Assembly (NCBI GenBank): GCA_020845775.1
Contig: JADLFC010000017.1
Coordinates: 1-55,594 of the forward strand
Source of the DNA: Deltaproteobacteria bacterium
GTDB lineage: Bacteria; Bdellovibrionota_C; UBA2361; SZUA-149; JADLFC01
DNA: 55,594 nt
Direction: 5' to 3'
This document shows, one piece after another, positions 1,670 to 55,594 of this stretch. The stretch's first letter is position 1. Each line of letters begins with the position of its first letter. The notes below the pieces were generated by a model. That model saw nothing but the letters and a program-made list of their open reading frames with translations, did no database searches and was not told the origin of the DNA. The position numbers and the translations under genes are program-made.

Positions 1670-1674
1670 GAACT

Positions 1675-2823
1675 ATGCGAGATAAAGTAAGTTCAAGTGT
1701 TCCGGCGCATTTGGCCCTAGCCGATGGAACTGTGTTTAAGGGTAGAGCTATAGGACAGATTGGCGAGGCTACGGGAGAAGTAGTGTTTAACACCTCCATG
1801 TATGGCTATCAGGAAATAATTACGGATCCCTCATATGTAAATCAAATGGTCACATTTACTTATCCTCATATTGGGAATGTGGGAGTAAATGCCGAAGATG
1901 TTGAGTCGGCCAGGGTGCAGGTAGCTGGAATTATAGTCCATGAGCTTTCAGCTTGCTACTCGAATTTTAGGGCTCAGGGTTCGCTTGAAGAATATCTAAA
2001 AGCTAACGGCGTAGTGGGGATTGCTGGGATAGATACGCGTTCTCTCGTGCTGCACATTCGCAATGTTGGAGCGCAGATGGGAGTAATAGCTAGCGGTGAA
2101 CACAATCCCGATGAGCTAGTAGATCGCGCTCGCGCGCTTCCAAGTCTAGAGGGACTCAATTTGGCTGAGCGCGTAAGTGCCTCGGCTGCCTATGATTGGA
2201 CTCAAGGTACTTGGGTTCTCGGTAGAGGATATAAGCAGCATACTACTAGTGAGCTAAGTAAGCGTCCCTTGGTAGTAGTTTTGGATTACGGGGTAAAGTA
2301 CAATATTCTTAGGCTGCTCATAGATAGTGGTTTTCGCGTTCGCGTTTTGCCTGTAGATTCGTTGGCGAAGGACGTTCTAGCTCTCTCACCGGATGGAGTT
2401 TTTTTGTCGAATGGCCCAGGCGATCCGGCGGCCGTGGTTGCGGCCATAGAGTGCGTTAGGGAACTTCTCGGCAAGAAGCCGATTTTTGGCATATGTTTGG
2501 GGCATCAGATTTTGGGGCTTGCTCTTGGGTTAAAGACTTATAAGCTAAAATTTGGCCACCGCGGTGGCAATCATCCGGTGCGCAATAAGATAACCGGTTT
2601 AGTGGAGATTACTTCGCAAAACCACGGATTTGCTTGCGTTCCGGACGACAAGCTGGCTTCAGTGAAGGTAAGCCACGTCAACTTAAACGACCAAACGGTC
2701 GAAGGCTTGAGTGTTGCCGATGCCCGTGCTTTTTCGGTTCAATATCACCCCGAAGCCTCGCCCGGACCGCGCGATTCGCGTTATTTGTTTGCTCAGTTTA
2801 GAAAAATGGTAGAGGTATTTTAA
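1675..2823 (+). CDS. carA: Carbamoyl-phosphate synthase small (glutaminase) subunit
   Basis: 382 aa. Carries the GATase catalytic motif [10 protein letters not shown] plus a CPSase small-chain N-domain. It sits immediately upstream of carB. Confidence 0.95.
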
Positions 2824-2824
2824 A

Positions 2825-9546: not shown

Positions 9547-9620
9547 GGCTTTCTTTAAAAAAAACTTTGGTCGAGTAAACACGGTGTGAAACTCCCCGGG
9601 TTTATTCGACCGTGTCGTCG

Positions 9621-9653
9621 TCGTAAACTGGCAGGCGCCCTCGGAGCCTGCCA
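9621..9653. terminator. GC-rich hairpin (ctggcaggc-N9-gcctgccag) in the convergent gap between the ALDH gene and the LTXXQ gene; possible bidirectional terminator
   Basis: A perfect 9-bp inverted repeat is visible. The flanking T-runs are weak on both strands. Confidence 0.35.
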
Positions 9654-9674
9654 GTTGGCAACTATGTTTTTAAG

Positions 9675-10067
9675 CTATGCCTTGTCGCAGCTACCACCGC
9701 CGCAGTTATGCCCGCATGGCATCCCTTTATCGCCTTTCCAGTTCTTTCTCATTTCCTCGAATTGAGTTTTTTGCTTGTCGTTTAGAACTGATTGAACCTT
9801 CTTAACCTTCTCGTCGTGTTTTGCTTGCCGGCAATCCCTTCTCTCGGAAAACTTATTTAGGGAATTGCATCGCTTGTTATCTTTTTTCATTTGCGAAAAA
9901 ATTTCGGCAATTTGGTTAGCCTGGTCATCCGTGAGCTCGAGCTTGGCCTGAAGCCGCTCTATTTTCTGGTCGACCCACTTGCCATTTCGCTCAGCCAGCA
10001 CAGGCGTGCTGAGAACCATTACCGCGCATACGGCAAAAACTGATTTTGCTATGTAGCTTCTCTTCAT
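9675..10067 (-). CDS. Periplasmic LTXXQ-motif protein (Spy/CpxP/ZraP family) with a Cys/Gly-rich C-terminal tail
   Basis: A signal peptide (MKRSYIAKSVFAVCAVMVLSTPVLA) is followed by two LTxxQ-like helices (LELTDDQANQI and VLNDKQKTQFEEM). The C-terminus reads PCGHNCGGGSCDKA. A GGGAGA Shine-Dalgarno sits 5 nt before the ATG. Confidence 0.7.
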   Translation of the reverse strand: MKRSYIAKSVFAVCAVMVLSTPVLAERNGKWVDQKIERLQAKLELTDDQANQIAEIFSQMKKDNKRCNSLNKFSERRDCRQAKHDEKVKKVQSVLNDKQKTQFEEMRKNWKGDKGMPCGHNCGGGSCDKA

Positions 10068-10175
10068 TTGTATTTCTCCCAGTTAACAATAATTACACTG
10101 CATGACGTTAGACGAATGACATTCAACAATAATAATTAAATAGCTTTTTTTCATGTGCCCTTGCAATTCAAGGCC

Positions 10176-10300
10176 ATACCGTTTCCAAGAAGTAAGTTAA
10201 ATATTTTACTTTTTGGAAACGGTATTTGTTGTTTATTGGCAAGTGCTTACGCACTTGCTGTTTATACCATTTAAAAAAATCTTTTTTGTAAATGGCATAT
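10176..10300 (+). repeat. Dispersed structured repeat, copy A (three stem-loops)
   Basis: The copy reads ataccgtttccaagaagtaagttaaatattttactttttggaaacgg...ggcaagtgcttacgcacttgc...ccatttaaaaaaatcttttttgtaaatggcatat. It is about 90% identical to the copy at 17367-17490 and to the reverse-complement copy at 36496-36621. Confidence 0.9.
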
Positions 10301-10401
10301 GGCAAATTGACGTTCATTTTTTTTCTCAAGACCCAGCGTAGGTCCAAAACGATAATAAATACGGGGACTTAGTCACTTCGAGACATTGCTTGCCTTTATG
10401 G

Positions 10402-10430
10402 TTGAAGCCTTTTAGCTAAACTGCTATAAT
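10402..10430 (+). promoter_or_regulatory. Sigma-70-type promoter candidate for the rimP-nusA-infB operon
   Basis: -35 TTGAAG at 10402-10407, a 17-bp spacer, and a consensus -10 TATAAT at 10425-10430. This predicts a leader of about 200 nt before rimP. Confidence 0.5.
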
Positions 10431-10642
10431 CAAAAAGTTTTTTCGAGCGTGTTAATTTTTCTCCAGTTTTCCCGGCGCCAAGGCGCAAGTTCTCTTAGCA
10501 AGTAGGCTGCATTATAGCTGTTTTATCTGCGCTCGGGTGGTTCTAACTTCACTACATGTGGACTTGTTTGAACTCGCTGATGTGGGTGGCGCGGCGTTCT
10601 CGGGAGTAGTGTTTTTTGACTGTTGGGATGAGTTGATAGTTT

Positions 10643-11188
10643 ATGGCGTTTGTCGATGTCAATAGCGAACTTTGGCGCGAGCTCGCTTCTCTCGCGGAAG
10701 ATGATGGCGTTACGCTTTATGACGCTGCCTTGCAGGGCAATAGTAGTGTGATTATCTACGTATGCAAGAGCGGTGGCGATGGAAAGATCGCAGGCGGCGT
10801 TAGCAGCGGAGATTGCTCAAAGTTATGCAAGAGATTGATTACTTTTTTTGCTGTAGAGGCTAGTAGGTTTGGGTTGAGCGAGGAGATGCGCATAGAAGTG
10901 TCGTCTTCAGGCATTAATCGCAATTTGCGCTTACAGCGTCATTTTATGGGCGCCGTGGGAGAAAGAGTTCGCCTAACACTTTACGGGGCGGAAACTAGTG
11001 ATGACGGCAAAAAGGTGGCTAACCGAGGAGCTAGAACTATTCGCGGAACATTGAAGGCCGCGGATGAGCTAAACATTACCGTAGAAGAGGAAGGAAAGGA
11101 CGCAACAGGGGCTGTCGTCCCATATGCGAGCATTAAGAGCGCAAGAATAGATTTTAATTTTGAGAATTGTAACGGGTTGAGGAAATAA
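10643..11188 (+). CDS. rimP: Ribosome maturation factor RimP
   Basis: 181 aa located immediately 5' of nusA. The N-domain (LYDAAL...VIIYV) and length fit RimP/DUF150. Confidence 0.8.
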   Translation: MAFVDVNSELWRELASLAEDDGVTLYDAALQGNSSVIIYVCKSGGDGKIAGGVSSGDCSKLCKRLITFFAVEASRFGLSEEMRIEVSSSGINRNLRLQRHFMGAVGERVRLTLYGAETSDDGKKVANRGARTIRGTLKAADELNITVEEEGKDATGAVVPYASIKSARIDFNFENCNGLRK

Positions 11189-11194
11189 TTGCGT

Positions 11195-12676
11195 ATGGCT
11201 ATAAAGTTTGATCTAGAACAGATCGTAAATCAGGTTGGTCGAGACAAGGGCATTAGCACTAGCGTGCTAGTATCGGCCTTGGAGTCTGCGGTGCTTAGTG
11301 CGGCAAAGAAGCATTTTGGCCACAATCTGAATCTAGAGGCTAGCTATAATTCCGATCTGGGAGAAATCGAGGTTCTAGAGTTCAAGACGGTGGTGGAGAA
11401 AGTTGACAATCCGCTTACTCAGATGAGCTGGGAAGACGCTAGGCGCGATTACGATCCCGATTGCGAGTTAGGTGACGAGATCGGCTGCAAAATCGATTCC
11501 TCAGAATTAGGCCGAATAGCGGCGCAGACGGCCAAACAGGTCATCTTTCAAAAACTTCGCGATGCCGAACGCGATGTCATCTATAGCGAGTACCGCGACC
11601 GCAAGGGCGAGATAGTAAACGGCATTGTGCAGAGATTTGAGCGCGGAAATATTATTGTTAACCTCGGCAAGACCGATGCCCTGTTGCCGGCGCGTGAGCA
11701 GATTCAGCGCGAAAGATATCGACAGGGCGATCGCATCCGTGCAATGATTCTCGACATCGCTCCGGTAAGTCGCGGACCGCAAATCGTCCTTACTCGAAGC
11801 CATCCGGAGTTTATGCGAAAGCTGTTTGAAATTGAGGTTCCCGAAATATCCGAGGGCATTGTGGAGATTAAGAGCGTTGCCCGCGAACCAGGAGAGCGCG
11901 CGAAAATCGCCGTATATTCTAACGATACAAATGTGGATCCAGTCGGGGCTTGTGTTGGGATAAAGGGCTCCAGGGTGCAGGCAGTGGTGTCTGAGTTAAG
12001 AGGTGAACGCATCGACATCGTTACCTGGACACCGGATGCTCCGAGTTTTGTCGCTAGAGGGCTTTCACCTGCGGAAGTTGTGCGCGTTATCGTCGACGAG
12101 GAGGAGCACGCGATGGAGGTCGTTGTAGCAGACGATCAGCTGTCGTTAGCAATAGGACGCCAGGGACAAAACGTTAAGCTGGCCTCAAAGCTAACGGGCT
12201 GGAGGATTGATGTGCGCAGCGAGTCAGTTGCCGAGGAAGAGTCGAAGCGAGCACGAGAGGCGCTTCAATCGATTCCCGCAATTGGTTTTGGCGAAGCAGA
12301 GCTTTTGTATCAACAGGGATATCGAACTATTCAGGAGGTGAGCAATGCGTCTGTGGAAGATCTCACCTCCATCGAGGGAATTGACGAGCTAAGAGCCAGA
12401 GACATCATCGGAGGAGCGGCTAGATTGCTGGATGAGGAAAAGGTTAACGGCAGCGGCCCTAAGTCTACTGACGAGTCGGTTGCTACGGATATAGATCAGC
12501 TGGTATTGCCGGAGGGATTCCGAGAGGTGCTAGTTAAAAACAACTTTGTGACAATTCAGAGCCTTGCTTCCATAAGTCCACAGGACTTATCTCGCGCTAC
12601 TGGCTTGCAGGAAGATCAGGCGGCAGTAGTCTGTAAGGCGACGGAGTCGTTTTTGAAATTTCAACAGAGGGTGTAG
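11195..12676 (+). CDS. nusA: Transcription termination/antitermination factor NusA
   Basis: NusA N-domain, S1 domain, two KH domains and two C-terminal acidic HhH repeats are present. The length of about 493 aa matches proteobacterial NusA. Confidence 0.95.
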   Translation: MAIKFDLEQIVNQVGRDKGISTSVLVSALESAVLSAAKKHFGHNLNLEASYNSDLGEIEVLEFKTVVEKVDNPLTQMSWEDARRDYDPDCELGDEIGCKIDSSELGRIAAQTAKQVIFQKLRDAERDVIYSEYRDRKGEIVNGIVQRFERGNIIVNLGKTDALLPAREQIQRERYRQGDRIRAMILDIAPVSRGPQIVLTRSHPEFMRKLFEIEVPEISEGIVEIKSVAREPGERAKIAVYSNDTNVDPVGACVGIKGSRVQAVVSELRGERIDIVTWTPDAPSFVARGLSPAEVVRVIVDEEEHAMEVVVADDQLSLAIGRQGQNVKLASKLTGWRIDVRSESVAEEESKRAREALQSIPAIGFGEAELLYQQGYRTIQEVSNASVEDLTSIEGIDELRARDIIGGAARLLDEEKVNGSGPKSTDESVATDIDQLVLPEGFREVLVKNNFVTIQSLASISPQDLSRATGLQEDQAAVVCKATESFLKFQQRV

Positions 12677-16033: not shown

Positions 16034-16402
16034 ATGTATAAGAAAGAGAGAAAGACCGAGAGAGTGCACGCCTTTTTAGCCGAGGAGATAAGAAGGCTTG
16101 GCGATCCCTGTTTGGGTTTTATTAGTATTACGGGAATAAAGCTGTCGCCAGACGGAAGAGTTGCGCGCATTTACTGGAGCTATTTTGGCGCAATTGGGAA
16201 CTCTGCTAATGAGTCGGCTTTTTTGAATCGCGAGGAAATTGCGGCAGTTGACGCAGCCTTAAAAAAAGCTACAAAATTTTTGCGTCGGCGAATCGGTGAA
16301 GAGCTCGAACTTAGATACGTGCCAGAGTTGATTTTTGAGTATGACAGTTCCGTAGAAACCGGAGCGCGTATAGATATGTTGCTCGAAAAGGCGGGTTTGT
16401 GA
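16034..16402 (+). CDS. rbfA: Ribosome-binding factor A
   Basis: 122 aa with the RbfA KH-like fold sequence (RVHAFLAEEIRR...VARIYWS). It lies directly after infB. Confidence 0.9.
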   Translation: MYKKERKTERVHAFLAEEIRRLGDPCLGFISITGIKLSPDGRVARIYWSYFGAIGNSANESAFLNREEIAAVDAALKKATKFLRRRIGEELELRYVPELIFEYDSSVETGARIDMLLEKAGL

Positions 16403-17391
16403 GTTTGAACAAAGAGCAATTAGCAGATATTGCGAGGCGCTTAGGTGCTTGTAAAAAAGTGCTGGTGAGCACTCATATTTCTCCCGATTCAGATGCAATT
16501 GGTTCGAGCTTTGCTCTCGCATTGGCCTTGCGTTTGCTTGGCATAGAGGTGGTAGTTTACCTCTTCGATGTCTTTCCAGAACGGATGGAGCCTTTTAGAT
16601 CTGGGGTCTCTCCAATTCATTCGATTCCAGAGAAAGAATTCGACGCCTTTGTGGGTTTGGATGCTGCAACGGCTAATCGCTTTGGGGACGATTTTGAGCT
16701 CTTGCTCAAAAGAGCAAGCCTCACGTTTAACTTGGATCATCATGTTTCAAATTCCAATTGGGCCGAGATTAATTACGTCGACTGCGAAGCAGCGGCTAGT
16801 GCGCAAATTGTTTTTTCTCTAATTAAAGAGCTTGGCGTAAGTGTAGATACTGAAATGGCGAATCTCTTGTATGCTGGTCTAGCCGACGATACTGGGAGTT
16901 TTAGGTATTCAAACGTCAATGAGAAGGTTTTTATGTGCGCTGCTGAGATCGTTAGATGTGGGGCGCAGCCTGAGCGCGTTTCAAATTGGCTGTATTATTC
17001 CGTTCCAGCTAGAGTGATGCAACTAAGAGCCTTAGCTATGGAAGTGACGAACATTATTCTCGATGGCCAGGTTGGCATGGTTGTCGTTACGAAGGAGATG
17101 CTCGATAGGTGCGGTGCCACTGCTCAGGATTCGGAAGGCATCATCGATGACGTGAGAGCTCTGCGCGGAACCATAGGAGCTGTTTTTATGCGCGAAACCG
17201 ATGATGGCTGGAAGCTAAGTTTAAGGTCCAAGGCTAGTTGCCTTAACGTACAGGACATTGCAGCAGTTTTTGGCGGTGGCGGACACTACGCAGCAGCGGG
17301 ATGCAGGATGCGCGGCAGTAGAGAGGATGTTGAAAGGAAAATTGTCGCCGAGCTCGAAAAGCATCTATGCCGTTTCCAGAAAGTGACTTAA
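16399..17391 (+). CDS. nrnA: DHH/DHHA1 phosphoesterase (NrnA-like nanoRNase/pAp phosphatase)
   Basis: DHH motifs (HISPDSDAIGS, DHH...) and a DHHA1 GGGH motif are present. It overlaps rbfA by 4 nt. Its last 7 codons, CRFQKVT*, lie inside repeat copy B. Confidence 0.85.
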   Translation: MSLNKEQLADIARRLGACKKVLVSTHISPDSDAIGSSFALALALRLLGIEVVVYLFDVFPERMEPFRSGVSPIHSIPEKEFDAFVGLDAATANRFGDDFELLLKRASLTFNLDHHVSNSNWAEINYVDCEAAASAQIVFSLIKELGVSVDTEMANLLYAGLADDTGSFRYSNVNEKVFMCAAEIVRCGAQPERVSNWLYYSVPARVMQLRALAMEVTNIILDGQVGMVVVTKEMLDRCGATAQDSEGIIDDVRALRGTIGAVFMRETDDGWKLSLRSKASCLNVQDIAAVFGGGGHYAAAGCRMRGSREDVERKIVAELEKHLCRFQKVT

Positions 17392-41533: not shown

Positions 41534-42706
41534 CTAACTGTCGCGGTCCATCTGTAGCGAAAGGCCGGCGGCCATTCCTTCGCCCTCGGTGGAATCGCCG
41601 CCCTTACTTCCGCTAAAGGCCGATGCCGGTTCGTTCAGCGAACCGTCTTCGGCTAGCTTTATTTTTAGGCGCAGGTTGTTGGTGCTGTCGGCGTTTCTAA
41701 GCGCCTCCTCCAAGGAAATGCGACCTTCCTGGTAAAGACTGAGCAAGTGCTGGTCAAACGTCTGCATTCCCACAGTAGTGCTAATTTCCATTGCCTCTTT
41801 TAGTTCTGCAATCTTGCCTCGGTAGATTAAATCCTTAACACGAGGACTGCCTAACAGTATCTCGACACAGGCAGCCCTGTTGCCCTCGACCGTGCGCACT
41901 AAGCGCTGAGAAATAATCCCGCGAAGATTTAGGCTTAACTGAAGATAGATCTGCTGATGCCGCTCCGGCGGAAAAAAGTTCATTATGCGTTCCATCGCCT
42001 GGTTTGCGTTATTCGAATGAAGCGTTGCAAGACACAAATGTCCAGTCTCAGAAAACGCAATGGCCGCTTCCATCGTATCCGAATCCCTAATCTCACCAAT
42101 GAGGATTACGTCAGGTGCCTGCCTGAGCGCATTCTTTAAGGCACTAAAATAATTGTCCGTGTCCATGCCAATCTCGCGCTGATTTACAATCGACTTCTTA
42201 TGCGCGTGCACAAACTCAATGGGATCCTCTATTGTAATAATATGACCAGCCTGGTTTGAGTTTCTGTGGTCAATCATTCCCGCAAGAGTCGTAGACTTTC
42301 CGCAGCCAGTAGAGCCAACGACCAACACCAAACCGCGCTTACTCATTGCAACTTCTTTGATAACGGCTGGCAAACCAAGATCGTCTAAGTTTGGAATCTT
42401 AGACTTAATCTGTCGAATTACCATGCCAATACAACCACGCTGGCGAAAAATGTTTACGCGATAGCGCCCTAAACTGGAATAGTAGAGAGCTAAATTCTGC
42501 TCGTTTGTGGCCTCAAAATCCTTCTGTTGCTTTTCGGTCATTACACTCATGGCGAGCATCTCCGTCTCCTCGCGCTCAAGAGCGCGCGAACCAGCCGGTC
42601 GCACAACGCCGTTAACGCGATAACACGGCGGGCTGTCAACCGTTACATAAAGGTCTGAAGCATCGTGTTCATTCATTACTGTTAAAAGCTTTCTAATATC
42701 TAACAT
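41534..42706 (-). CDS. pilU: Type IV pilus retraction ATPase PilU (PilT paralog)
   Basis: The Walker A VGSTGCGKSTT and the PilT-family His-box/Asp-box are present; 390 aa. It lies directly downstream of pilT. Confidence 0.85.
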   Translation of the reverse strand: MLDIRKLLTVMNEHDASDLYVTVDSPPCYRVNGVVRPAGSRALEREETEMLAMSVMTEKQQKDFEATNEQNLALYYSSLGRYRVNIFRQRGCIGMVIRQIKSKIPNLDDLGLPAVIKEVAMSKRGLVLVVGSTGCGKSTTLAGMIDHRNSNQAGHIITIEDPIEFVHAHKKSIVNQREIGMDTDNYFSALKNALRQAPDVILIGEIRDSDTMEAAIAFSETGHLCLATLHSNNANQAMERIMNFFPPERHQQIYLQLSLNLRGIISQRLVRTVEGNRAACVEILLGSPRVKDLIYRGKIAELKEAMEISTTVGMQTFDQHLLSLYQEGRISLEEALRNADSTNNLRLKIKLAEDGSLNEPASAFSGSKGGDSTEGEGMAAGLSLQMDRDS

Positions 42707-42785
42707 ATTGTTTGCCTTCCCGTAGTTCGCAACAGCGCTTTACCACAAGCCATTCCAGGCTCATTCGTTCGGCGACAAGCGGTTC

Positions 42786-43832
42786 TTATTGCTCAGTACC
42801 AAAGAGATTCGGATTCCCAGATTTCTCGATGGCCGTCTCCTTCGTAATCAGATGAGCATCGGCTAACTCCACTAATGCCATTTCCATCGTCCGCATGCCC
42901 ACATTCTGCCCAGTCTGCAGCATACTCGGCAGTTGGTGAATCTTGTTTTCCCGTATGAGGTTTCTAACACCCGTCGTCCCTACCAGTATCTCCAGTGCCG
43001 CAATTCGCCCGCCACCGACCTTCTTGCAAAGCGTTTGAGTTATTATTGCTTGTACCGACTCGCTTAGCATTGCTCGCACCTGACCCTGTTGGTCAGCGCT
43101 AAACACATCGATAATGCGATCTACTGTCTTAGGTGCACTTGAAGTATGTAGTGTCCCGAACACCAAATGACCTGTCTCTGCGGCGGTAAGCGCCAATTGA
43201 ATAGTCTCCAAATCTCGCATTTCGCCAACGAGAATGATATCTGGATCCTCTCGCAAAGCGGCTCGCAACGCCGCCGCAAACGAGCCCGTGTGTGGCCCAA
43301 CCTCACGCTGGTTAACCAAGCAGCGCTTCGAGGGATGCACAAACTCAATCGGATCCTCGACGGTAAGAATGTGGCCTTCCAGCTCATTGTTTATTAGATC
43401 GACCATTGCTGCCAAGGTGGTGGATTTTCCAGAGCCGGTTGGGCCAGTAACTAGTACTAAACCCTTTTCCTTTCGCGTTAGCTGCGCCAAAATTGACGGC
43501 AAGCCCAACTGCTCGAGGCTCATTATTGCAGTAGGAATAGTCCTAAACACGGCGCCCATCCCACGCCGCTGCCTAAAAACATTGACGCGAAACCGCGCTC
43601 CCTCACCAAGCTCAATTGAAAAATCAATGTCATTGTACTCCTCGAACACTTTTCGCTGAGAGTCACCCATTATGTCGTAAAGCATCGCATGCGTCTGCTC
43701 CGGACTAAGCACTGGCAACTTTACTTTTTTCATGTCGCCATGTACGCGAATAATAGGCGGCTCGCCGGCACTAATGTGTAGATCCGAACCACCCTGCTGA
43801 TACGTAAATGTTAGTAACTGAGCTATATCCAT
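42786..43832 (-). CDS. pilT: Type IV pilus twitching-motility ATPase PilT
   Basis: 348 aa with the Walker A VTGPTGSGKSTT. The PilT signature AIRNLIREGKxHQxxS is approximated by VRNLIRENKIHQLPS. Confidence 0.9.
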   Translation of the reverse strand: MDIAQLLTFTYQQGGSDLHISAGEPPIIRVHGDMKKVKLPVLSPEQTHAMLYDIMGDSQRKVFEEYNDIDFSIELGEGARFRVNVFRQRRGMGAVFRTIPTAIMSLEQLGLPSILAQLTRKEKGLVLVTGPTGSGKSTTLAAMVDLINNELEGHILTVEDPIEFVHPSKRCLVNQREVGPHTGSFAAALRAALREDPDIILVGEMRDLETIQLALTAAETGHLVFGTLHTSSAPKTVDRIIDVFSADQQGQVRAMLSESVQAIITQTLCKKVGGGRIAALEILVGTTGVRNLIRENKIHQLPSMLQTGQNVGMRTMEMALVELADAHLITKETAIEKSGNPNLFGTEQ

Positions 43833-44116: not shown

Positions 44117-44284
44117 TCAATCCGTGTCTATCGCCTCTTTGAGCTCTGGATTGCTTAACAGCTTAGAGGCCTCGCCGCCAACCGCCGCAACGCCTATAAC
44201 ACAGGCGAGCATTATGAGCGATGCGACTAAAAGATACTCTAACAACGTAGCGCCTTTTTCGTTATGGAAATATTTAAACATCAT
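44117..44284 (-). CDS. flp: Flp/Fap-family type IVb pilin (prepilin)
   Basis: Hand translation of the minus strand gives MMFKYFHNEKG|ATLLEYLLVASLIMLACVIGVAAVGGEASKLLSNPELKEAIDTD*. It has the Flp motif G/ATxxEY, with E at +5 and Y at +6 after the cleavage Gly, and a hydrophobic helix. At 55 aa it falls below the 60-aa cutoff of the ORF track. Confidence 0.8.
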   Translation of the reverse strand: MMFKYFHNEKGATLLEYLLVASLIMLACVIGVAAVGGEASKLLSNPELKEAIDTD

Positions 44285-44514: not shown

Positions 44515-47500
44515 ATGAATTCATTGGCAAGCGACACAGAAGATCGAAGAGAGCCTTACCATGCTGTTATTCACGGTAAGAGCAACTTCTCAACAAGGCC
44601 AACGAGAATTTCGGGTTTTTGGGGCAGCACTGTTGCCGCTTACGAGATTTCCAAGCTCGCCCGTAAGCAAAAGCGAACCTTTTCGATCGTCGTGGTCGTT
44701 CCCGACTCACGTGCGGCGGAGGAGATAGAGCGAGATCTGCACTTTTTTTTAGATGAGGCGCAGGCTAAGGATCAAACCAGCACTCCTGCGATTACTATCT
44801 CCAAATTCCTAAACTGGGAGGTTCTGCCGTTTGACGAATTATCTCCAGCCCGAGACATAAGCGCTGAGCGCTTGTTTTCCTTAAAGACCCTCGCCATGAA
44901 TCAATGCTCAATAGTTGTCGCTACTGCGCCAGCTCTGATGCAGAGAATTCTCCTCCCACGAGATTTAATGACGAGTATAAGGAAAATATCTCTCAACATG
45001 GAACTATCGAGAGATAAATTCATTGCCAGCCTCGATAGCCTTTCTTACGTTCGAACTACTTTAGTGGAGGAAGTCGGACAAATGGCTGTGCGCGGAGCCG
45101 TAGTGGATTTCTTTCCGCCAGGCATAAATCTGCCGATAAGAGTTGAGCTGTTCGCAGATATAATTGGATCAATTCGCACTTTTAATCCTGCCACTCAGCG
45201 AAGCGTCACTTCGTTAGCGGAGTTTGAAATCATGCCGGTAGGTGAATGCGTGCATCTTGCCGATTCCTCTCAACGCGTCCAATTTGCAATAGATAAGATT
45301 AAGGAGCGCGCAGACGACCTTGCAATTCCAACTAACCAGATCGAGGGCTTGATAGATGCGCTTAAAGGCAATGCCGATTATCCAGGCCTCGAACACCTGT
45401 TCTGCCTAATTTCAGAAAGCTCAGGAACGTTTCTTGACTACGTTTCGGAAAGTTCCTTGCTCGTAGCATACGACGAAATTGCCATCGCACAGGCTTTGGA
45501 TTCCTTTGAGGCATTAGTAGAAGAGCGAAGCCTCTTGGCTGAGAAGGAAGGGAGGCTTTTTTGCCAAACATCCTCTGCGTTCCAAACGGCAGAGCATACG
45601 CTAAGACAGCTACGCAAGAGGGGAAATTTCTTCTTTGACACTGTCGATATGCTTTCCTTCGACGATTCGCTTAGAGACGCCGCCAATGAGTCGCACGCAG
45701 AGTCTCCTAGCCTGGAGAAAGTGCGTGTTTACTCGAATTCAGAGATAACTAAGAAACTCTGGTCTTCCACCGACCAGGTTCAACCTTTTAAGGAACTCTC
45801 GAGGGAGATAAAGGCACGCATAGACGAGGGAGTAGCCGTCGCTTTAGTAACTAGCCAGGCATCGCGAGTTCAGCGCATTGTCGAGCTACTAACTAATTAC
45901 GAAATATCTTGTGAAAGGTTTAAAGGCTCATTTGCGAACTGGAGAAGTAGAGTAGAGAGCAGTAGCGGACGAGATCGCAAGGTAGTTAGTATTCTGGAAG
46001 GTGTGTGTGGTTCGGGATTGCGCGCGCTCGATGATGCTTTGATGTTTATTTTGGACACGGAAATTTTTAGAGACATGGCCGTGCGCCAGACGCGCTTTGC
46101 AGCACAAAACATTAAGCGCTTTCTTGGCACTAAGTCGCAATTAAGCGAGAACGATTTCGTGGTTCACGTCGATCATGGCATCGCCATCTATCGGGGCCTA
46201 AAGGCCATGACAGTGGAAGGCGAGATAAACGATTATCTCCACCTAGAGTACGCCGAAGGGGCCAAGCTCTATGTTCCAATGGACAACATAGCTAAGGTAC
46301 AAAAGTATATCAGTGCCGGAGGAGGCGCGGAACCGCAGCTAACTAAACTCGGTTCTACTGCCTGGGAAAAGGCTAAGACAAAAGTTCGGCAAAATGTTCA
46401 AGTCTTGGCGGGCGAACTCATTAAGATTTATGCCGAAAGACAGGTAGCCAAAGGACTATCGTTTGGGGAGCCGGATGAAGAGGACGAGCGCTTTGCCGAT
46501 TCCTTTGCATTTACTGAGACGCCCGATCAGATGTCGGCCATTGACGATGTATTGAGAGACATGGCGTCTGATAAGCCCATGGATCGCCTAGTATGTGGCG
46601 ATGTCGGCTACGGCAAGACTGAGGTTGCCGTGCGCGCAGCATTTAAGGCCGTCATGTCGGGTAAACAGGTCGCCATTTTGGTTCCGACGACGGTTTTGGC
46701 GGATCAACATTTCGCTACCTTTAGTGAGCGCTTTGCAGGATACCCAATTCGCCTAAAATGTTTGAGCCGTTTTTGTTCGCCTATTGCAAATCGCCAAACC
46801 GTTTTGGAGCTTGCTAGTGGCAGCCTAGATGTAGTAATCGGCACACACCGCCTTTTGCAGCGAGATGTGCATTTTAAAGATCTGGGATTGTTGATTATCG
46901 ATGAAGAGCACCGCTTTGGAGTGGCACATAAGGAGAGGTTTAAGCGATTTAAGCGCGAAATAGATGTCTTGACATTGAGCGCTACGCCTATCCCAAGAAC
47001 TCTCAACATGTCGCTATCTGGTATACGGGATTTAAGCGTAATCGAAACACCACCAAGCGATCGGCAAGTAATTAGAACGTACATTGCGCCGTATAGCGAT
47101 GGCGTAGTGCGCGAGGCGATAATGCGCGAGATAGGACGCAGCGGGCAGGTGTTTTACATTCACAATCGAGTCAGCAATATCGCTGCTATTGCAGCCGAGC
47201 TTGGCAAACTGGTTCCAGAGGCCAAGATAGAATTTGCCCATGGACAGATGCACGAAAAGGAGCTAGAGGTTATTATGCATCGATTCGTAAGTCGCGAGAT
47301 CGATGTGCTGGTTTCAACTACGATTGTCGAGTCTGGCTTAGATATTCCAAACGCCAACACCATCATCATTCGAGGAGCAGAAAAATTCGGCTTGGCTGAG
47401 CTTTATCAGCTTAGAGGTCGGGTAGGAAGGAGCTCGCGCCGCGCCTATGCCTACCTACTAGTGCAAGATTTAAAGAACATTGCCGGGGATGCAAAGCGGC

Positions 47501-48174
47501 GCCTACAAGTGCTTCAATCGTTAGACGACCTAGGTGTGGGCTTTCGATTAGCGCTTCAGGATATGGAAATTCGCGGCGCAGGAAATCTTTTGGGAAAGGA
47601 TCAGTCAGGACAAGTAAGCCAAGTTGGCTTTGAGTTATATTCTCGGATTTTGAAGGAAGTTGTGGATAACATGCAGGAGAGTGCTGTAGAAACCACCAAT
47701 CTCACAAAAGATGTTCCCATAGTGGAACCAGAGGTTCATATTGGTTTTCCCGTTCATATACCGGAGTGGTATATTCCGGATGTTGCCGAGAGGTTAGTAT
47801 TGTACCAGCGATTAGTAGATTTGCGAGACGAGGCGCGAGCTGGCGAGTTAAGAGAAGAGATCGAGGACAGATTTGGCAGGCTTCCAGAAGAAGTCGCTTT
47901 GCTGCTCGAGCTAATGACTTTTCGCAGTTTGCTAAAACAAGCTCGAATTGTGTCGGCTAGTTTTAGAAATTCTCAGCTAGTGTTAGCATTTCACCCGCGC
48001 GTTTCTCTGGATGGCAAAACAGTTATCGAAGCTATTCAGACCGCAAGGGGTCGCCTAAAGATTAGCCCAGATATGGTATTAAAAGCTGATATTGGAGTAC
48101 AGAAACTGGAGTCACCCGCCGAGTTGCTAGGTCACACAAAGGCAATATTAAAACAGCTTGGCGTGCAAGTGTAA
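44515..48174 (+). CDS. mfd: Transcription-repair coupling factor Mfd
   Basis: 1219 aa. UvrB-homology N-terminal modules, a RecG-like SF2 helicase core (CGDVGYGKTEVA, DEEHRFG) and a TRG motif are present. Confidence 0.95.
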   Translation: MNSLASDTEDRREPYHAVIHGKSNFSTRPTRISGFWGSTVAAYEISKLARKQKRTFSIVVVVPDSRAAEEIERDLHFFLDEAQAKDQTSTPAITISKFLNWEVLPFDELSPARDISAERLFSLKTLAMNQCSIVVATAPALMQRILLPRDLMTSIRKISLNMELSRDKFIASLDSLSYVRTTLVEEVGQMAVRGAVVDFFPPGINLPIRVELFADIIGSIRTFNPATQRSVTSLAEFEIMPVGECVHLADSSQRVQFAIDKIKERADDLAIPTNQIEGLIDALKGNADYPGLEHLFCLISESSGTFLDYVSESSLLVAYDEIAIAQALDSFEALVEERSLLAEKEGRLFCQTSSAFQTAEHTLRQLRKRGNFFFDTVDMLSFDDSLRDAANESHAESPSLEKVRVYSNSEITKKLWSSTDQVQPFKELSREIKARIDEGVAVALVTSQASRVQRIVELLTNYEISCERFKGSFANWRSRVESSSGRDRKVVSILEGVCGSGLRALDDALMFILDTEIFRDMAVRQTRFAAQNIKRFLGTKSQLSENDFVVHVDHGIAIYRGLKAMTVEGEINDYLHLEYAEGAKLYVPMDNIAKVQKYISAGGGAEPQLTKLGSTAWEKAKTKVRQNVQVLAGELIKIYAERQVAKGLSFGEPDEEDERFADSFAFTETPDQMSAIDDVLRDMASDKPMDRLVCGDVGYGKTEVAVRAAFKAVMSGKQVAILVPTTVLADQHFATFSERFAGYPIRLKCLSRFCSPIANRQTVLELASGSLDVVIGTHRLLQRDVHFKDLGLLIIDEEHRFGVAHKERFKRFKREIDVLTLSATPIPRTLNMSLSGIRDLSVIETPPSDRQVIRTYIAPYSDGVVREAIMREIGRSGQVFYIHNRVSNIAAIAAELGKLVPEAKIEFAHGQMHEKELEVIMHRFVSREIDVLVSTTIVESGLDIPNANTIIIRGAEKFGLAELYQLRGRVGRSSRRAYAYLLVQDLKNIAGDAKRRLQVLQSLDDLGVGFRLALQDMEIRGAGNLLGKDQSGQVSQVGFELYSRILKEVVDNMQESAVETTNLTKDVPIVEPEVHIGFPVHIPEWYIPDVAERLVLYQRLVDLRDEARAGELREEIEDRFGRLPEEVALLLELMTFRSLLKQARIVSASFRNSQLVLAFHPRVSLDGKTVIEAIQTARGRLKISPDMVLKADIGVQKLESPAELLGHTKAILKQLGVQV

Positions 48175-50652: not shown

Positions 50653-53292
50653 ATGCGTGATGAGATATGCATCATCGAGGCCAATGAAAACAATTTGGCG
50701 CGCATTAACTGTTTTTTTTCGCGAAATGCCCTTAACGTGGTTACTGGGCCGTCTGGCTCTGGCAAGACGTCATTAGTATTTGACGTATTATGCCGAGAAG
50801 CGCAGTGGCGTTTTTTTGAGAGTTCTCTAAGCCGCTCAAAAAATATTGCCGTTAGTTTAAAGCGTCCGGACGTCAAATCCATCAGCGGTCTTTCATTTGT
50901 ATCTGGGATCAGTTTCCGCGATCTTCCGTCGCCGTTTGCTACGTTGTCTACGCTTACTCGCATCTATGAGTACTTGCGCTTAATTTTCTATTACTGCGGC
51001 GCTCCACATTGCCTAAATTGCGGTGCGAAACTTTCCTGCCATTCGCGCCGCGATATGTGTCGTTTCGCGCTGACAATGGCCAAGGATTCGGCGATTGCCG
51101 TAATTGTACGCTTTAAAAAAGTTTCGCGGGAGCAGTTTAGGGAAAAATGCAAGGATTTTGGATCCAAGGGATTCTCGCGCATTCGATTGGGAAAGAAGTT
51201 TTTTCACATCGACGATGCGTTACGCCTAAAGATTAATGAGCCACAGCTAACATTTTCGCTAGTAATAGATGTAATTCCACAGTGTGCTGACAATCGCAGT
51301 GAGGCTCGAATTATCGAGGCACTCGAGACGGCGCTTAGTGTCGGAGGCGGCGAGGCATTTATCGCCGAGATGCGCGACAGTGGGGAAAAAAGACATCTCT
51401 CGGAGTTGCTGAGATGTAAGGATTGCGAACTCGTACAGAGGCGAATAGAGTTGGCAGCGTTTTCGTACCACAACCCTCATTGCGCCTGCGATACCTGCCG
51501 TGGAAGCGGATTTCGCAGCAGGCATCGCGGTCGACATGGCGCGGCGGAGGAAAAACACTGTCCAGATTGTGGAGGTGCCCGAGTGGGTGTGGAGGCTCGG
51601 CACTATCGCCTATTAGACAGATCTTTCGCACAAGTGGTCGGCGATTCAGTGGACAGCCTCTTAATATTTGCTAAACAGGCAGAGTCTCAGCTTGGCGCTC
51701 AGGAGCACTTTAAACGCACTGGCGATTCTTCTTCTCCTAACGGCGAACGAATGCCTTTTCGTGAAAGCTTCGATGTGTTACGTGCCGCAGCTAAAGAACT
51801 TATTGCACGAGCTAGCAATCTAAGCGAATTGGGACTTGGATATCTTGAATTAAACAGGCCAATAAGCAGTTTGTCTAAAGGAGAGTTACAGCGAGCACAG
51901 CTTGCTCGGGTGTTAAACAATGGCATGAGTGGAATCGTCTATGCGCTGGATGAGCCAACGTTGGGTTTACATCCAAAAGATACAACAAATGTAGTGCGCG
52001 TATTGGAGCGAATCATTAGTCTCGGCAATACAGCTATTGTTATCGAGCACGACTTTTCTTTTGTTGCTCATGCAAGCCACGTACTTTCATTGGGGCCTGG
52101 CGGAGGGACGAATGGTGGAAGAGTGGTTTTTTCTGGCAATGCAAGGGATTATCTGAGCTTTTGCGCCGATAATGAGAGGTCGACTCCTAAGCATGAGGCG
52201 CAGGCGAGAATAGAAGATACGTCGCGCGTAGTGGATAATCTTACATCTGTGGAGAATCCGCCGTGCTTAAGTATCAAAGGTGCTAAGAAAAATAATTTAA
52301 AAAACCTCGATTGCGTTGTTCCTCTAAACCGTCTCGCAGTAATTTGCGGTGTTTCGGGTTCGGGGAAAACTAGCTTAATCGCCGAAACTATTGCGCCAGC
52401 TATAAAAGAGGCTTTGAGGGTAAAGAAGGGTGCTCAAGGTTTAAAACTGATAGCGATTGACTGGAGCAAGTGGCAACTTGAAAGTATTTCGGGCTTTGAG
52501 GGCATAAGCAGGGTGGTTGACTCATGGCGAGCTGCTAGGAAAGACAATCGGCGATCCGTTGTCGCTACTGCAATCGGTGTGATGCTTCCTCTAAGAGGCA
52601 TGTTTGCTCGGACAGTCGGCGCCAAGATGCGAGGTTTTAGCAATAGGCATTTTTCTTTTAACTTGATTGAAGGCGCCTGCATGCGCTGCAAGGGAATTGG
52701 GGTCGAAAAAAGCTTAGCTGAGTCTGGCAACATACTAGAGGCAGTCTGCGAGGATTGCCGTGGAAGGCGCTACCGCCCGGAACTAGAGGAGATTCGTTAT
52801 CGCAATCTGTCTATCCAGGAGGTTTTAGACCTAAACATTGAGCAGGCATTTGCCGTTTTTCAGAAGATTGAGCAGATTGGGCATCCGCTTTCACAGGCCA
52901 TTGAGGTGGGCTTGGGCTATTTAAAGCTGTCCGAGCCTACCGCCTCTCTATCTTTTGGCGAGTACAATCGATTAATGCTAGCAAGAGACATACTGTCTCG
53001 ATCCCTGAGAGGACGAAACAGCCCAGCACTCTATATCTTCGATGAGCCGTCGGAGGGCCTACATAGAGACGAAATTTCGCTTCTCATTAAACTTTTTAGG
53101 CGCTTAGTAAATGCTGGTAATACTGTACTACTAATTGAGCACAATACGCACATAATTAGTGAGGCGGATTTTATTCTGGAACTGGGGCCAGGCGCCGGAC
53201 GGTCTGGAGGAGAAATAATAGCCTCGGGCTCCAAGAAAGAGGTAATGGAGAGCCATCATTCCCTAATAAGGCAGTATTTAAAGAATAACTAG
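50653..53292 (+). CDS. Divergent UvrA-like ABC ATPase (UvrA paralog)
   Basis: N-terminus MRDEICIIEANENNLARINCFFSRNALNVVTGPSGSGKTSL aligns with the UvrA N-terminus and first Walker A. A second Walker A is CGVSGSGKTSL. Walker B and H motifs read ALDEPTLGLH/IEHD and IFDEPSEGLH/IEHN. Both signature motifs are degenerate: LSKGELQRAQLA and LSFGEYNRLMLA in place of LSGGEAQR. Zn-finger-like Cys clusters are retained. Confidence 0.75.
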   Translation: MRDEICIIEANENNLARINCFFSRNALNVVTGPSGSGKTSLVFDVLCREAQWRFFESSLSRSKNIAVSLKRPDVKSISGLSFVSGISFRDLPSPFATLSTLTRIYEYLRLIFYYCGAPHCLNCGAKLSCHSRRDMCRFALTMAKDSAIAVIVRFKKVSREQFREKCKDFGSKGFSRIRLGKKFFHIDDALRLKINEPQLTFSLVIDVIPQCADNRSEARIIEALETALSVGGGEAFIAEMRDSGEKRHLSELLRCKDCELVQRRIELAAFSYHNPHCACDTCRGSGFRSRHRGRHGAAEEKHCPDCGGARVGVEARHYRLLDRSFAQVVGDSVDSLLIFAKQAESQLGAQEHFKRTGDSSSPNGERMPFRESFDVLRAAAKELIARASNLSELGLGYLELNRPISSLSKGELQRAQLARVLNNGMSGIVYALDEPTLGLHPKDTTNVVRVLERIISLGNTAIVIEHDFSFVAHASHVLSLGPGGGTNGGRVVFSGNARDYLSFCADNERSTPKHEAQARIEDTSRVVDNLTSVENPPCLSIKGAKKNNLKNLDCVVPLNRLAVICGVSGSGKTSLIAETIAPAIKEALRVKKGAQGLKLIAIDWSKWQLESISGFEGISRVVDSWRAARKDNRRSVVATAIGVMLPLRGMFARTVGAKMRGFSNRHFSFNLIEGACMRCKGIGVEKSLAESGNILEAVCEDCRGRRYRPELEEIRYRNLSIQEVLDLNIEQAFAVFQKIEQIGHPLSQAIEVGLGYLKLSEPTASLSFGEYNRLMLARDILSRSLRGRNSPALYIFDEPSEGLHRDEISLLIKLFRRLVNAGNTVLLIEHNTHIISEADFILELGPGAGRSGGEIIASGSKKEVMESHHSLIRQYLKNN

Positions 53293-53419
53293 GAAATAAG
53301 CTAGTATTAGCGTAACTATTATTGAAAAACCGCTAATAACTATTAGTGTAAGATGATAGATTTTAGGCTTCGGTAAGTTGTTTTGTAGTAACATTCGCGC
53401 CAAATTGGCTTTTTTAAGG

Positions 53420-53435
53420 TGGCACAATTATTGCA
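53420..53435 (+). promoter_or_regulatory. Sigma-54 (RpoN) promoter upstream of the tad pseudopilin genes
   Basis: TGGCAC-aatta-TTGCA at 53420-53435 matches the -24/-12 consensus TGGCAC-N5-TTGCA exactly, with GG-to-GC spacing of 12 nt. It lies about 200 nt upstream of tadE. Confidence 0.6.
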
Positions 53436-53636
53436 GTTTTTTGTTCGAGAGTGATTACGGCGTGCAATTTTTCATAGGCGGTTACTTCTGTGCACATTCT
53501 GTTCGACGAGATGCAGAGACGGCAGGTTTTTTTGCGCTGAACTGCCTAACAGGAGGCGCTTGTTCTCTCGCGCTTGTTCACTTGCTTGAATTGGATACTG
53601 CTGCGTGATATTTTAGGATTTGGGGGGTTTTTTGCT

Positions 53637-54113
53637 ATGCCTTTAATGAGGTGTAATCTAGGAGATAATAGAGGTATCTCACTAGTAGAGCTTTCAATTA
53701 TTCTTCCAATGTTGATGCTGCTTTTAGGCGGCATAGTGGATGTCGGTCTAACGCTTAGGACTTATCAGGTCGTCTCGGAAGCTGCTAGACAGGCGGCTCG
53801 AGTTGGTAGTGGCGTTAGCTGTGCTGACGCTCCCGGCGTGGCTGTGGACACTGCTACTAATTTCCTTACGAATGCTGGTTATAAAGTTCAGGAAGTAAAA
53901 GGAGATGAGACTATTAACCACTGGATTATCGCTGCCGTTCAGGCGCAACACCAAGAGGGTTTGGGAACGGCGGCATTCGATGAGTGCATGTTAAGGGTAT
54001 CGATCGACCAAAACACTCCGTCCTGCGTCATCTGTTTGGGCGAGACTTTTCTTGGGCTTCGCGCTAACGCGGAGAGCACATTTGCCATGGAGCCAGGATG
54101 CAAATGTCCGTAG
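53637..54113 (+). CDS. tadE: TadE-like Flp pilus assembly protein (pseudopilin)
   Basis: MPLMRCNLGDNRGISLVELSIILPMLMLLLGGIVDVGLTL is a TadE N-terminal motif. Start chosen at the internal ATG at 53637; the track ORF begins at 53574. Confidence 0.75.
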   Translation: MPLMRCNLGDNRGISLVELSIILPMLMLLLGGIVDVGLTLRTYQVVSEAARQAARVGSGVSCADAPGVAVDTATNFLTNAGYKVQEVKGDETINHWIIAAVQAQHQEGLGTAAFDECMLRVSIDQNTPSCVICLGETFLGLRANAESTFAMEPGCKCP

Positions 54114-54616
54114 ATGCTCAATCGATCTCATCGTTACTACAAACCTTTAGACAGCAGAAGGGAGCTACGATGCTAGAGTTCAGCCTTTCGTGTCTAGTTT
54201 TAATTGGAATTGTGGGCGCCGTTTTCGACGTAGGCATTGGTTTTCGCAACTACGTATTGATGACTCATACCACAAATGAGGCTGTTCGCGAATTTGCAGC
54301 GCGAGCGGGTGGGCTGCTCTTACCTCCGGCATGTGAAGATTTAGTAAGCAATAAGGCATCGCCAAAATGTAACGAGTTGGGCGCATGTTTGGCGCTTAGT
54401 GCGAAAAATGCACTCGAAAAGGAGATGGGTATTAGCGGTGACTATGAATTTTTAGCAACAGTTGGAAGTAAGGGAAGGGAGTTCGTATCACTTGAGGGGA
54501 GATGGCCGCTAGACTGTTTCTTTTGCTTATTGCTGCCAGATAACAAAAATTTCACTGTAAGAACTAGAAGTAGCTCCTTAATCGAAAATATGAATTTTCG
54601 CTGTGCAAATGAATAG
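54098..54616 (+). CDS. tadF: TadE/TadF-like Flp pilus assembly protein (pseudopilin)
   Basis: RQQKGATMLEFSLSCLVLIGIVGAVFDVGIGF is a TadE-family N-terminus. It overlaps tadE by 16 nt. Confidence 0.7.
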   Translation: MQMSVDAQSISSLLQTFRQQKGATMLEFSLSCLVLIGIVGAVFDVGIGFRNYVLMTHTTNEAVREFAARAGGLLLPPACEDLVSNKASPKCNELGACLALSAKNALEKEMGISGDYEFLATVGSKGREFVSLEGRWPLDCFFCLLLPDNKNFTVRTRSSSLIENMNFRCANE

Positions 54617-54648
54617 TAGTTGGTTTGGAATGAGGCTTTTTGGTTGAT

Positions 54649-55594
54649 ATGGGTTTAGGCAATTTTTTTAATTCTAACGACAGGCGGACTCGTGCTTTTG
54701 ACGAGCGTGGCTCAGTGATAGTCTTTGTCGCACTGCTAATTGGAGTAATGGTTGGCGTGGTCGGTTTGGTAGTGGATCATTCTAGGCATGCCGTAACTGC
54801 TCTTCACCTTAAGACTGTTGCTGATGCTGCCTCGCTTGCGGCATCGCGCAAACTGGATGGAACCCATGACGGCTGGCGACAGGCCAAACGTGCGGCCGTA
54901 GCAGTATTGAGGCAAAGTAAGATTTACGGAGTGGGGAATATTAGCTTCGAGTCTGCAAGTTTTAATGATGGCGTTGATGACCCATATGAGGATAGTGCCA
55001 ATTACAAAGCCACCAAGATGCGCGTTGGCGATGTTGCACTAACTATTGAGCGAGGTGCATGGTGGTATGAAGTGGATGAACACAAAGACGATGCCGGCCA
55101 ACAGAAGTTTTTTTCATTTGAGGGCTTGAAGGAAGTAAATGATTTTCCACCTTATGCTTTAGCGAATGCCGCTCAAGTTAGCCTAGAGCTTGCTGAAATG
55201 GATTTAACTTTTGCGAAAGTTTTTGGGCAGTCAAAGATTGGCACTACGGCGAGAGTAAGTACTGCAATTTCCGATAACGAGGTTCAGGAAGTTTGCGTAC
55301 TGCCAATTGCAATAAAGGATTGCATGCTGCGCATGGCCCCAGGCGCAAAAGACGATGGCTTCATGTACGATGAGTTTCACGCCGAGAAGCAATGTTCCAG
55401 AGAGGTAGCTACAAAAGTGGGAATGCAAGAGATGCCGCAGTTAGAGGAGGGGGCTCGATTGGCTGAATCCTATGTCTTGCGCACAGTTCCAGAAAGCTCT
55501 TCCGCTGGTAAGCTTCCCGAGCGAGATAACAAAATGGTTAACATCGAGGCAGTATTTGGGCTTCCAACGACTAACTTTCAAAGCTCGAAGGCCA
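54649..55594 (+). CDS. tadG: TadG-like Flp pilus assembly protein, N-terminal part (runs off the window end)
   Basis: Hand translation gives MGLGNFFNSNDRRTRAFDERGSVIVFVALLIGVMVGVVGLVVDHSRHAVTALHLKTVADAASLAASRKL..., a TadG N-terminal motif. There is no stop codon before the window end. Confidence 0.65.
   Translation, partial: MGLGNFFNSNDRRTRAFDERGSVIVFVALLIGVMVGVVGLVVDHSRHAVTALHLKTVADAASLAASRKLDGTHDGWRQAKRAAVAVLRQSKIYGVGNISFESASFNDGVDDPYEDSANYKATKMRVGDVALTIERGAWWYEVDEHKDDAGQQKFFSFEGLKEVNDFPPYALANAAQVSLELAEMDLTFAKVFGQSKIGTTARVSTAISDNEVQEVCVLPIAIKDCMLRMAPGAKDDGFMYDEFHAEKQCSREVATKVGMQEMPQLEEGARLAESYVLRTVPESSSAGKLPERDNKMVNIEAVFGLPTTNFQSSKA

Follow-up and report, generated by a model that had tools for sequence, protein, structure and literature searches.

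A probable sigma-54 promoter upstream of a stand-alone tadE/tadE-like/tadG operon from an uncultured deltaproteobacterial lineage

Background

Sigma-54 promoters carry a GG and a GC dinucleotide exactly 10 nt apart, within the consensus TGGCAC-N5-TTGCW. The sigma-54 holoenzyme forms a closed complex at these sites and has an absolute need for an upstream-bound enhancer-binding protein that hydrolyses ATP.

The operon DVU3342-3344 of Desulfovibrio vulgaris Hildenborough is among the targets of DVU2114, a sigma-54-dependent response regulator (Rajeev et al. 2011, PMC3333781). Its three products were annotated as carrying a TadE, a TadE and a TadG domain, respectively (PMC3333781, main text and supplement 1). 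The same regulator also targets the Flp pilin operon, given as DORF39640 onward (PMC3333781) and listed as DORF39640-DVU2129 in PMC4641369. Binding of this activator was measured by DAP-chip, a DNA-affinity-purification chip assay (PMC3333781), and Kazakov et al. 2015 (PMC4641369) assigned to DVU3342 a predicted sigma-54 promoter, AATGGAGCATTAATTGCTA, at -113, together with a DVU2114 site at -235. Among type IVa pili, sigma-54/PilR-dependent pilin promoters are known for pilA of Pseudomonas aeruginosa, Geobacter sulfurreducens and Myxococcus xanthus (PMC3333781). For the Kil (Tad-like) pilus of Myxococcus xanthus, TadE/F/G-like minor pilins were shown to form exchangeable tip complexes encoded in stand-alone clusters, with a large TadG-like protein of variable C-terminal domain as the proposed pilus tip (Herrou et al. 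2025, PMC12075869). That paper is silent on regulation, with 0 mentions of sigma factors or of enhancers.

Sigma-54 and its activators have been described as especially prominent in Deltaproteobacteria (PMC3526173; PMC12316311), and ‘Deltaproteobacteria bacterium’ is the NCBI label of the metagenome-assembled contig studied here. The whole stretch of 55,594 nt that was analysed is called the window below. A first-pass annotation of it had proposed a perfect sigma-54 promoter at 53420-53435, upstream of tadE/tadF/tadG, and different regulation of these pseudopilin genes and of a distant flp pilin gene.

Results and discussion

A three-gene Tad minor-pilin operon apart from assembly genes

The operon and the genes preceding it are arranged as follows.

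44515-48174, + strand: mfd, upstream of the motif
Upstream of the motif, + strand: a SurA-like chaperone gene and a phosphoglucosamine-mutase-like gene
50653-53292, + strand: uvrA-like gene, sequence-divergent, directly upstream of the 344-nt gap
53637-54113, + strand: tadE, 158 aa, first gene of the operon
54098-54616, + strand: gene of a second TadE-family minor pilin (tadF position), 172 aa
54651-55594, + strand: 5' part of the gene of a TadG-type large minor pilin, running off the window end

The first protein matched Pfam TadE (PF07811) with 48.1 bits (cut-off 22.9, E = 1.3e-12); its start codon is supported by the gene call in the near-identical Logan contig L001 and by the alignment of homologues. 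Its leader peptide MPLMRCNLGDNRG ends in Gly and is followed by ISLVEL (motif NRG/ISLVEL), with Glu at +5. The second gene overlaps tadE by 16 nt, and its product reached 24.4 bits for the same family (cut-off 22.9); direct reading gave QQKG followed by ATMLEF (QKG/ATMLEF), again with Glu at +5. The TadG-type protein, 774 aa in full as taken from L001, matched Pfam Tad (PF13400) over residues 21-65 with 26.9 bits (cut-off 22.3). Its motif ERG/SVIVFV, also read directly, consists of an N-terminal Gly and a hydrophobic segment. All three proteins are thus above their Pfam cut-offs and carry a prepilin-peptidase-type motif, with Glu at +5 only in the two TadE-type proteins.

Tad assembly genes (TadA/B/C/Z, RcpA/C, TadV) were found nowhere in the 55.6-kb window, and the Tad components of this genome are therefore probably scattered. 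The 879-aa UvrA-like protein encoded directly upstream fell under both NCBIfam UvrA equivalog cut-offs (604 vs 730 bits), and its nearest database homologue, from an Oligoflexia MAG, is 36% identical. Whether a paralogue or a diverged UvrA, it is a sign of a deeply branching lineage.

An exact sigma-54 consensus match in the gap before tadE

Between the uvrA-like gene and tadE lies a gap of 344 nt (53293-53636), which contains the putative promoter.

53420-53435, + strand: sigma-54 promoter core TGGCACaattaTTGCA, also written TGGCACAATTATTGCA, an exact TGGCAC-N5-TTGCA match
53420-53425, + strand: -24 element TGGCAC, with GG at 53421-53422
Between the two elements, + strand: 5-nt spacer AATTA
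53431-53435, + strand: -12 element TTGCA, with GC at 53433-53434
53446-53636, + strand: predicted 5' leader of about 191 nt, inferred from the position of the -12 element

The core matches 11 of the 11 specified consensus bases. It is located on the sense strand in non-coding DNA, and the tadE ATG follows 203 nt downstream of the -12 element. When both strands were scanned, this was the sole exact TGGCAC-N5-TTGCA in the window, compared with 0.03 expected per window from dinucleotide-preserving shuffles; both the exact match and the 344-bp gap had been described correctly in the first-pass annotation. Allowing one mismatch raises the expectation to 0.79 matches per window, at which the pattern ceases to be rare, and therefore only the exact match is informative.

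Strength of the site was scored with a matrix built from 87 D. vulgaris Hildenborough promoters of Kazakov et al. (PMC4641369, supplement 6). In the full 19-nt matrix the site reached 14.0 bits, inside the training range but higher than just 18 of the 87 promoters used for training; a match of this strength turned up somewhere in 134 of 200 random windows. Because this matrix favours a GC-rich spacer, having been derived from a high-GC genome, it was replaced by a spacer-masked core matrix, in which the spacer and the outer flanks are left out (training median 14.9 bits, maximum 19.2 bits). The spacer-masked score of the site was 17.0 bits, the highest -24/-12 score in the window. Sixteen matches reached at least 9.5 bits in this matrix, and the one at 53420-53435 is the sole intergenic match among them; intergenic DNA makes up 7.4% of the window in a gene map built from the list of open reading frames and family scans.

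The runner-up, ATTGGCCTTGCGTTTGCTT at 16521-16539 (+), scored 15.8 bits and is the only other match above 14 bits. It falls within the gene of a DHH-family protein (16399-17391), with truB about 1 kb further downstream, and is probably a chance match.

Sigma-54-type sites recur upstream of related tadE genes

The contig has no close relatives, and more distantly related loci were collected by several routes. Word-based searches gave no match for TadG and only the protein itself for TadE, TadG scans of genome and metagenome contigs returned nothing, and synteny via the uvrA-like neighbour was rejected, the locus of the 36% identical homologue having an unrelated context without tadE. A HMMER search with TadE recovered full-length homologues that share 25-38% identity with the window protein and form a subfamily with four invariant cysteines (C62, C130, C133 and C155, with C130-x2-C133). 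An alignment of the TadG type gave only N-terminal Tad-domain matches in unrelated genomes among the matches listed, and two true orthologous loci in metagenomes. In total 12 loci were compared, nine from the TadE homologues, two from the metagenome scan with the TadG-type alignment and one from a later look-up. The full-length homologues all came from metagenome assemblies, and none from the 185,579-species genome collection among the matches listed.

The tadE/tadE-like/large tadG unit was present in all four loci long enough to contain it (L007, L013, L014 and L036), with tadG products of 743-767 aa and the L014 copy cut by the contig end. Full-length TadG-type homologues measure 743-814 aa and are 27-35% identical. 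The three-gene unit defines a distinct subfamily. Its neighbours are housekeeping genes which differ from those of the window, and the genes upstream are different in every related locus. The TadG-type proteins are rich in cysteine and have no Pfam domain past the N-terminal Tad segment.

We scanned the sense strand up to 400 nt upstream of each tadE (3971 positions in total) with the spacer-masked matrix at a threshold of 11.5 bits. Coordinates of the three-gene unit, where given, and the sites found, with the position of the -12 C relative to the start codon, are listed below.

Window: three-gene unit 53637-55594
L007: three-gene unit 1601-4979; site TGGCATagataATGCT, -43
L013: three-gene unit 8001-11253; site TGGCATaaaatATGCA, -39
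L014: site TGGCATaacaaATGCA, -50
L025: site TGGCATggcgcTTGT, -178
L036: three-gene unit 661-3934; site TGGCATaccgaTTGT, -178

Sites of at least 11.5 bits were thus found in 5 of the 12 loci compared with 0.18 expected (Poisson P ~1e-6), an enrichment of about 28-fold over the background of 10 matches in 220,894 strand positions elsewhere in the loci and the window. The recurring type is TGGCAT-N5-ATGC/TTGT. As L013/L014 and L025/L036 are related pairs, the count of 5 in 12 is partly non-independent; counted by lineage it becomes 4 of 11 (L025 and L036 being close relatives, and L013 and L014 moderately related with 44% TadE identity), which is still far above chance. When the upstream regions of L007, L013 and L014 were aligned, the longest invariant block was TGGCATA, followed by ATGC, and the flanks had diverged. 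Between L025 and L036, three of the five spacer positions differ and both the -24 and the -12 element are intact. No strong site was seen in the remaining 7 of the 12 loci, two of which have just about 110 nt of upstream sequence; L016 and L026 gave weak candidate sites only. A sigma-54-type element before tadE is frequent in this family, not universal.

Because of its position, its rarity and above all its recurrence before related operons, with the D. vulgaris precedent in addition, we read 53420-53435 as a probable functional sigma-54 (RpoN) promoter of the stand-alone tadE/tadE-like/tadG operon, and assign this reading a probability of about 0.75. This part of the first-pass proposal is supported, with position, rarity and the recurrence in 5 of 12 loci against 0.18 expected in its favour; the proposed differential regulation of the pilin fares less well, as discussed with the flp gene below.

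Two further features were observed in the related loci. L025 (324-342) and L036 (615-633) share a weaker second site, TGGCGGaataaTTGCT, with 8.3 bits, 30 nt before the tadE start and near the position of the sole site in L007, L013 and L014, and these two loci may have tandem promoters. In L013 (7905-7925) and L007 (1506-1526), a similar block, GTTACTGGATAAATCGGGTCC and GTAACCGAATAAATCGGAACT, respectively, is situated about 35-40 nt upstream of the -24 element. The L007 block has arms CCGA...TCGG; the block is absent from the window and inconspicuous in the motif search, and could be a protein-binding site.

Read-through, other promoters and chance

The strongest competitor of a sigma-54 promoter is that the operon owes most of its transcription to a missed sigma-70-type promoter or to polymerase reading through from the uvrA-like gene, with a sigma-54 site that is vestigial or provides no more than conditional expression. 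A convincing intrinsic terminator after the uvrA-like gene was not found in 53293-53420, where only a 4-bp hairpin (GCCAaatTGGC) followed by T6 is present, and in L011, one of the loci lacking a strong site, a 24-nt gap before tadE and a co-directional upstream gene make co-transcription possible in this family. However, the genes upstream change from locus to locus while the sigma-54 site recurs, which points to an autonomous unit, and a simple scan of 53100-53800 revealed no sigma-70-like -35/-10 pair although 1.5 were expected by chance. Altogether we regard this explanation as unlikely.

Less probable still is that the motif is a chance occurrence without any role, tadEFG being served by some other promoter, inside or outside the gap, that escaped recognition. 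The chance-level frequency of the one-mismatch pattern, a full D. vulgaris matrix score that is unexceptional for a 55-kb window and the 7 of 12 related loci without a strong site would agree with this. Yet only about 0.0007 exact matches are expected, from the intergenic base composition, in the 4521 strand-specific positions that we defined as promoter-competent (up to 400 nt upstream of any gene start), and the site is the only intergenic one of 16 candidates. Moreover, the roughly 28-fold enrichment before related operons is seen with flanks and spacers that have diverged, which argues against a fortuitous match.

The predicted leader

With the C of the GC element (53434) set as -12, transcription from the sigma-54 promoter is predicted to begin around 53446. 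The resulting leader of about 191 nt agrees with the length of about 190 nt given in the first-pass annotation. The sites at -178 in L025 and L036 likewise imply long leaders, whereas those of L007, L013 and L014 would measure about 30 nt. The fold of the window leader was no more stable than that of shuffled sequences (z = +1.5, no excess structure). In Rfam, no match in the whole window reached the gathering score, and even with E values up to 10 nothing credible appeared in 53200-53750. A riboswitch or known RNA in the leader was rejected, there being no Rfam family and a fold no better than shuffles. Leader lengths of about 180-190 nt, as in the window and in L025 and L036, could reflect an additional level of control that is not yet recognised.

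A 76-codon ORF (53378-53608) overlaps the promoter and was called by the gene caller in L001. It has no Pfam match and begins upstream of the promoter, and was treated as spurious. That the promoter is real but serves mainly to produce the 190-nt leader as a small RNA, or this ORF, rather than tadEFG, is a very unlikely explanation: the leader is unusually long beside those of L007, L013 and L014, the ORF was picked up by a gene caller and several sigma-54-dependent non-coding RNAs occur in D. vulgaris (Kazakov et al., PMC4641369), but an ORF starting upstream of the promoter is not expressible from it, the leader shows neither an Rfam match nor excess structure, and no terminator precedes tadE except a weak 5-bp stem at 53543-53558.

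The promoter and the long leader are flanked by the two copies of a direct repeat (24 nt, 75% identity), ATTTTAGGCTTCGGTAAGTTGTTT at 53360-53383 and ATTTTAGGATTTGGGGGGTTTTTT at 53610-53633, which lie 250 nt apart. This repeat could be due to chance, or be what is left of an insertion or duplication by which the leader became longer than in L007, L013 and L014.

Candidate activator sites and the proposed mechanism

Upstream of the promoter, several repeats are clustered.

53300-53351, no strand assigned: candidate upstream activator region, with repeats at about -100 to -141 from the predicted start
53305-53315: repeat TATTAGCGTAA of the candidate region, 36 nt from TATTAGTGTAA
53341-53351: repeat TATTAGTGTAA of the candidate region
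53333-53346: perfect palindrome CTAATAACTATTAG of the candidate region
53305-53312 and 53331-53338: inverted repeat TATTAGCG / CGCTAATA of the candidate region

Exact TATTAGYGTAA and CTAATA-N2-TATTAG have no further copy in the window, including the region upstream of flp. A search for an activator-site motif shared by the five promoter-bearing loci performed no better than shuffles at widths of 10, 12 and 14, and the IHF consensus WATCAANNNNTTR has no match with up to one mismatch in 53293-53420. Binding of an activator at the TATTAGYGTAA and palindrome repeats is speculative. DVU2114-type sites (TCTA-N7-TAGA) were matched 14 times in the window with up to one mismatch, none of them in 53293-53420. 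Membership in the DVU2114 regulon was rejected because such a site is absent near the promoter, and a different activator is therefore to be expected.

Neither rpoN nor a protein with the Sigma54_activat (AAA+) domain is encoded among the window ORFs of at least 120 aa, and the gene calls in the flanks of L007, L013, L016 and L036 contained no Sigma54_activat protein. Judged from the established mechanism of sigma-54, expression of the operon would depend on RpoN and on an enhancer-binding protein. In the mechanism we propose, RNA polymerase with sigma-54 would bind the GG (53421-22) and GC (53433-34) as a closed complex. An AAA+ enhancer-binding protein, its gene lying in another part of the genome, would attach further upstream, perhaps to the TATTAGYGTAA and CTAATAACTATTAG elements about 100-140 nt before the predicted start. 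This activator would spend ATP to open the promoter, and transcription would begin at about 53446 and produce the leader of about 190 nt. The genes tadE, tadE-like and tadG would then be transcribed as a stand-alone operon for the minor pilins that presumably make up the tip of a Tad/Flp pilus.

The solitary flp gene

A pilin gene is located about 9 kb from the motif on the opposite strand and is not under the control of the promoter at 53420-53435.

44117-44284, - strand: solitary flp pilin gene, 55 aa, with MMFKYFHNEKG followed by ATLLEY (context only)

Its product scored 19.8 bits for Pfam Flp_Fap, below the cut-off of 32.2, and has the G/ATLLEY motif. The gene stands between two genes of type IVa retraction ATPases of the PilT/PilU family (41534-43832, -) and mfd; both secretion ATPases in the window belong to this family.

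As the first-pass annotation had noted, a sigma-54-type site was seen neither upstream of flp nor upstream of mfd, the best core score being 4.1 compared with 17.0 for the site before tadE. The near-match upstream of flp, TGCCAGcaatgTTGCA at 44388-44373 (-), is without GG and scored 0.58 bits in the spacer-masked matrix. A promoter of any type was not identified for flp on its own strand. We consider the further claim that pilin and pseudopilins are regulated differently weak; it is drawn from the lack of a recognisable sigma-54 site before flp. In D. vulgaris the flp and the TadE-TadE-TadG operons answer to one sigma-54 activator.

Comparison with known systems

Like DVU3342-DVU3344, the operon studied here consists of three TadE/TadE/TadG genes apart from a main flp-tad cluster, and it is preceded by a predicted sigma-54 promoter with an AT-rich spacer, as is AATGGAGCATTAATTGCTA, the activator site being located further upstream in D. 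vulgaris. Such a promoter-operon architecture has therefore already been described once. The likeness to the DVU2114 regulon is one of architecture, not of a common regulator. The two systems differ in that the D. vulgaris Flp operon has its own sigma-54 promoter and shares the activator, whereas the flp gene of the window has no such site. Furthermore, the proteins of the window belong to a cysteine-rich subfamily, with no related TadG-type protein in 185,579 species genomes among the matches listed. Activator binding in D. vulgaris is experimental, whereas the promoter of the window is predicted from its sequence.

The type IVa pilA systems are alike in that a -24/-12 promoter controls a pilus structural gene, for pilA with an upstream-bound AAA+ activator. 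These promoters drive the major pilin, whereas the genes downstream of the one described here encode minor pilins of a Tad (type IVc) pilus, and no PilS/PilR pair is encoded near the window promoter. The Kil ‘Tip’ clusters resemble the operon as separate three-gene TadE/TadF/TadG-like clusters away from the assembly machinery; at the protein level, the comparison of KilL/M/N with the window proteins is one of common Pfam families.

If the sigma-54 promoter reading is correct, it opens the regulation of Tad pilus tip proteins to concrete tests in a ‘deltaproteobacterial’ lineage that is uncultured and branches deeply. These proteins would be made there only upon activation of a specific enhancer-binding protein and separately from the pilin. 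Such control would be in line with the recent view of TadE/F/G complexes as functional tips that can be exchanged, and would extend the sole experimentally grounded sigma-54-controlled TadE-TadE-TadG operon (DVU3342-3344) to unrelated organisms. The understanding of how sigma-54 or the Tad pilus works is unchanged by it; its value comes mainly from the connection to tip cassettes and from the comparative support, which concerns a lineage not sampled otherwise. A broader idea, which we put forward tentatively and consider possible though rather doubtful, is that tadE, tadE-like and the large Cys-rich tadG form a self-contained tip cassette, present in several uncultured lineages at varied positions among housekeeping genes and equipped with a sigma-54 promoter of its own, so that a Tad tip or adhesin would be switched by a signal independently of the pilin and the machinery.

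Elsewhere in the window, at 20059-23544 (+), a protein of 1161 aa has a zinc metalloprotease domain of the reprolysin-like (M12B) type, along with FG-GAP and bacterial Ig-like repeats, and looks like a large secreted or surface protease.
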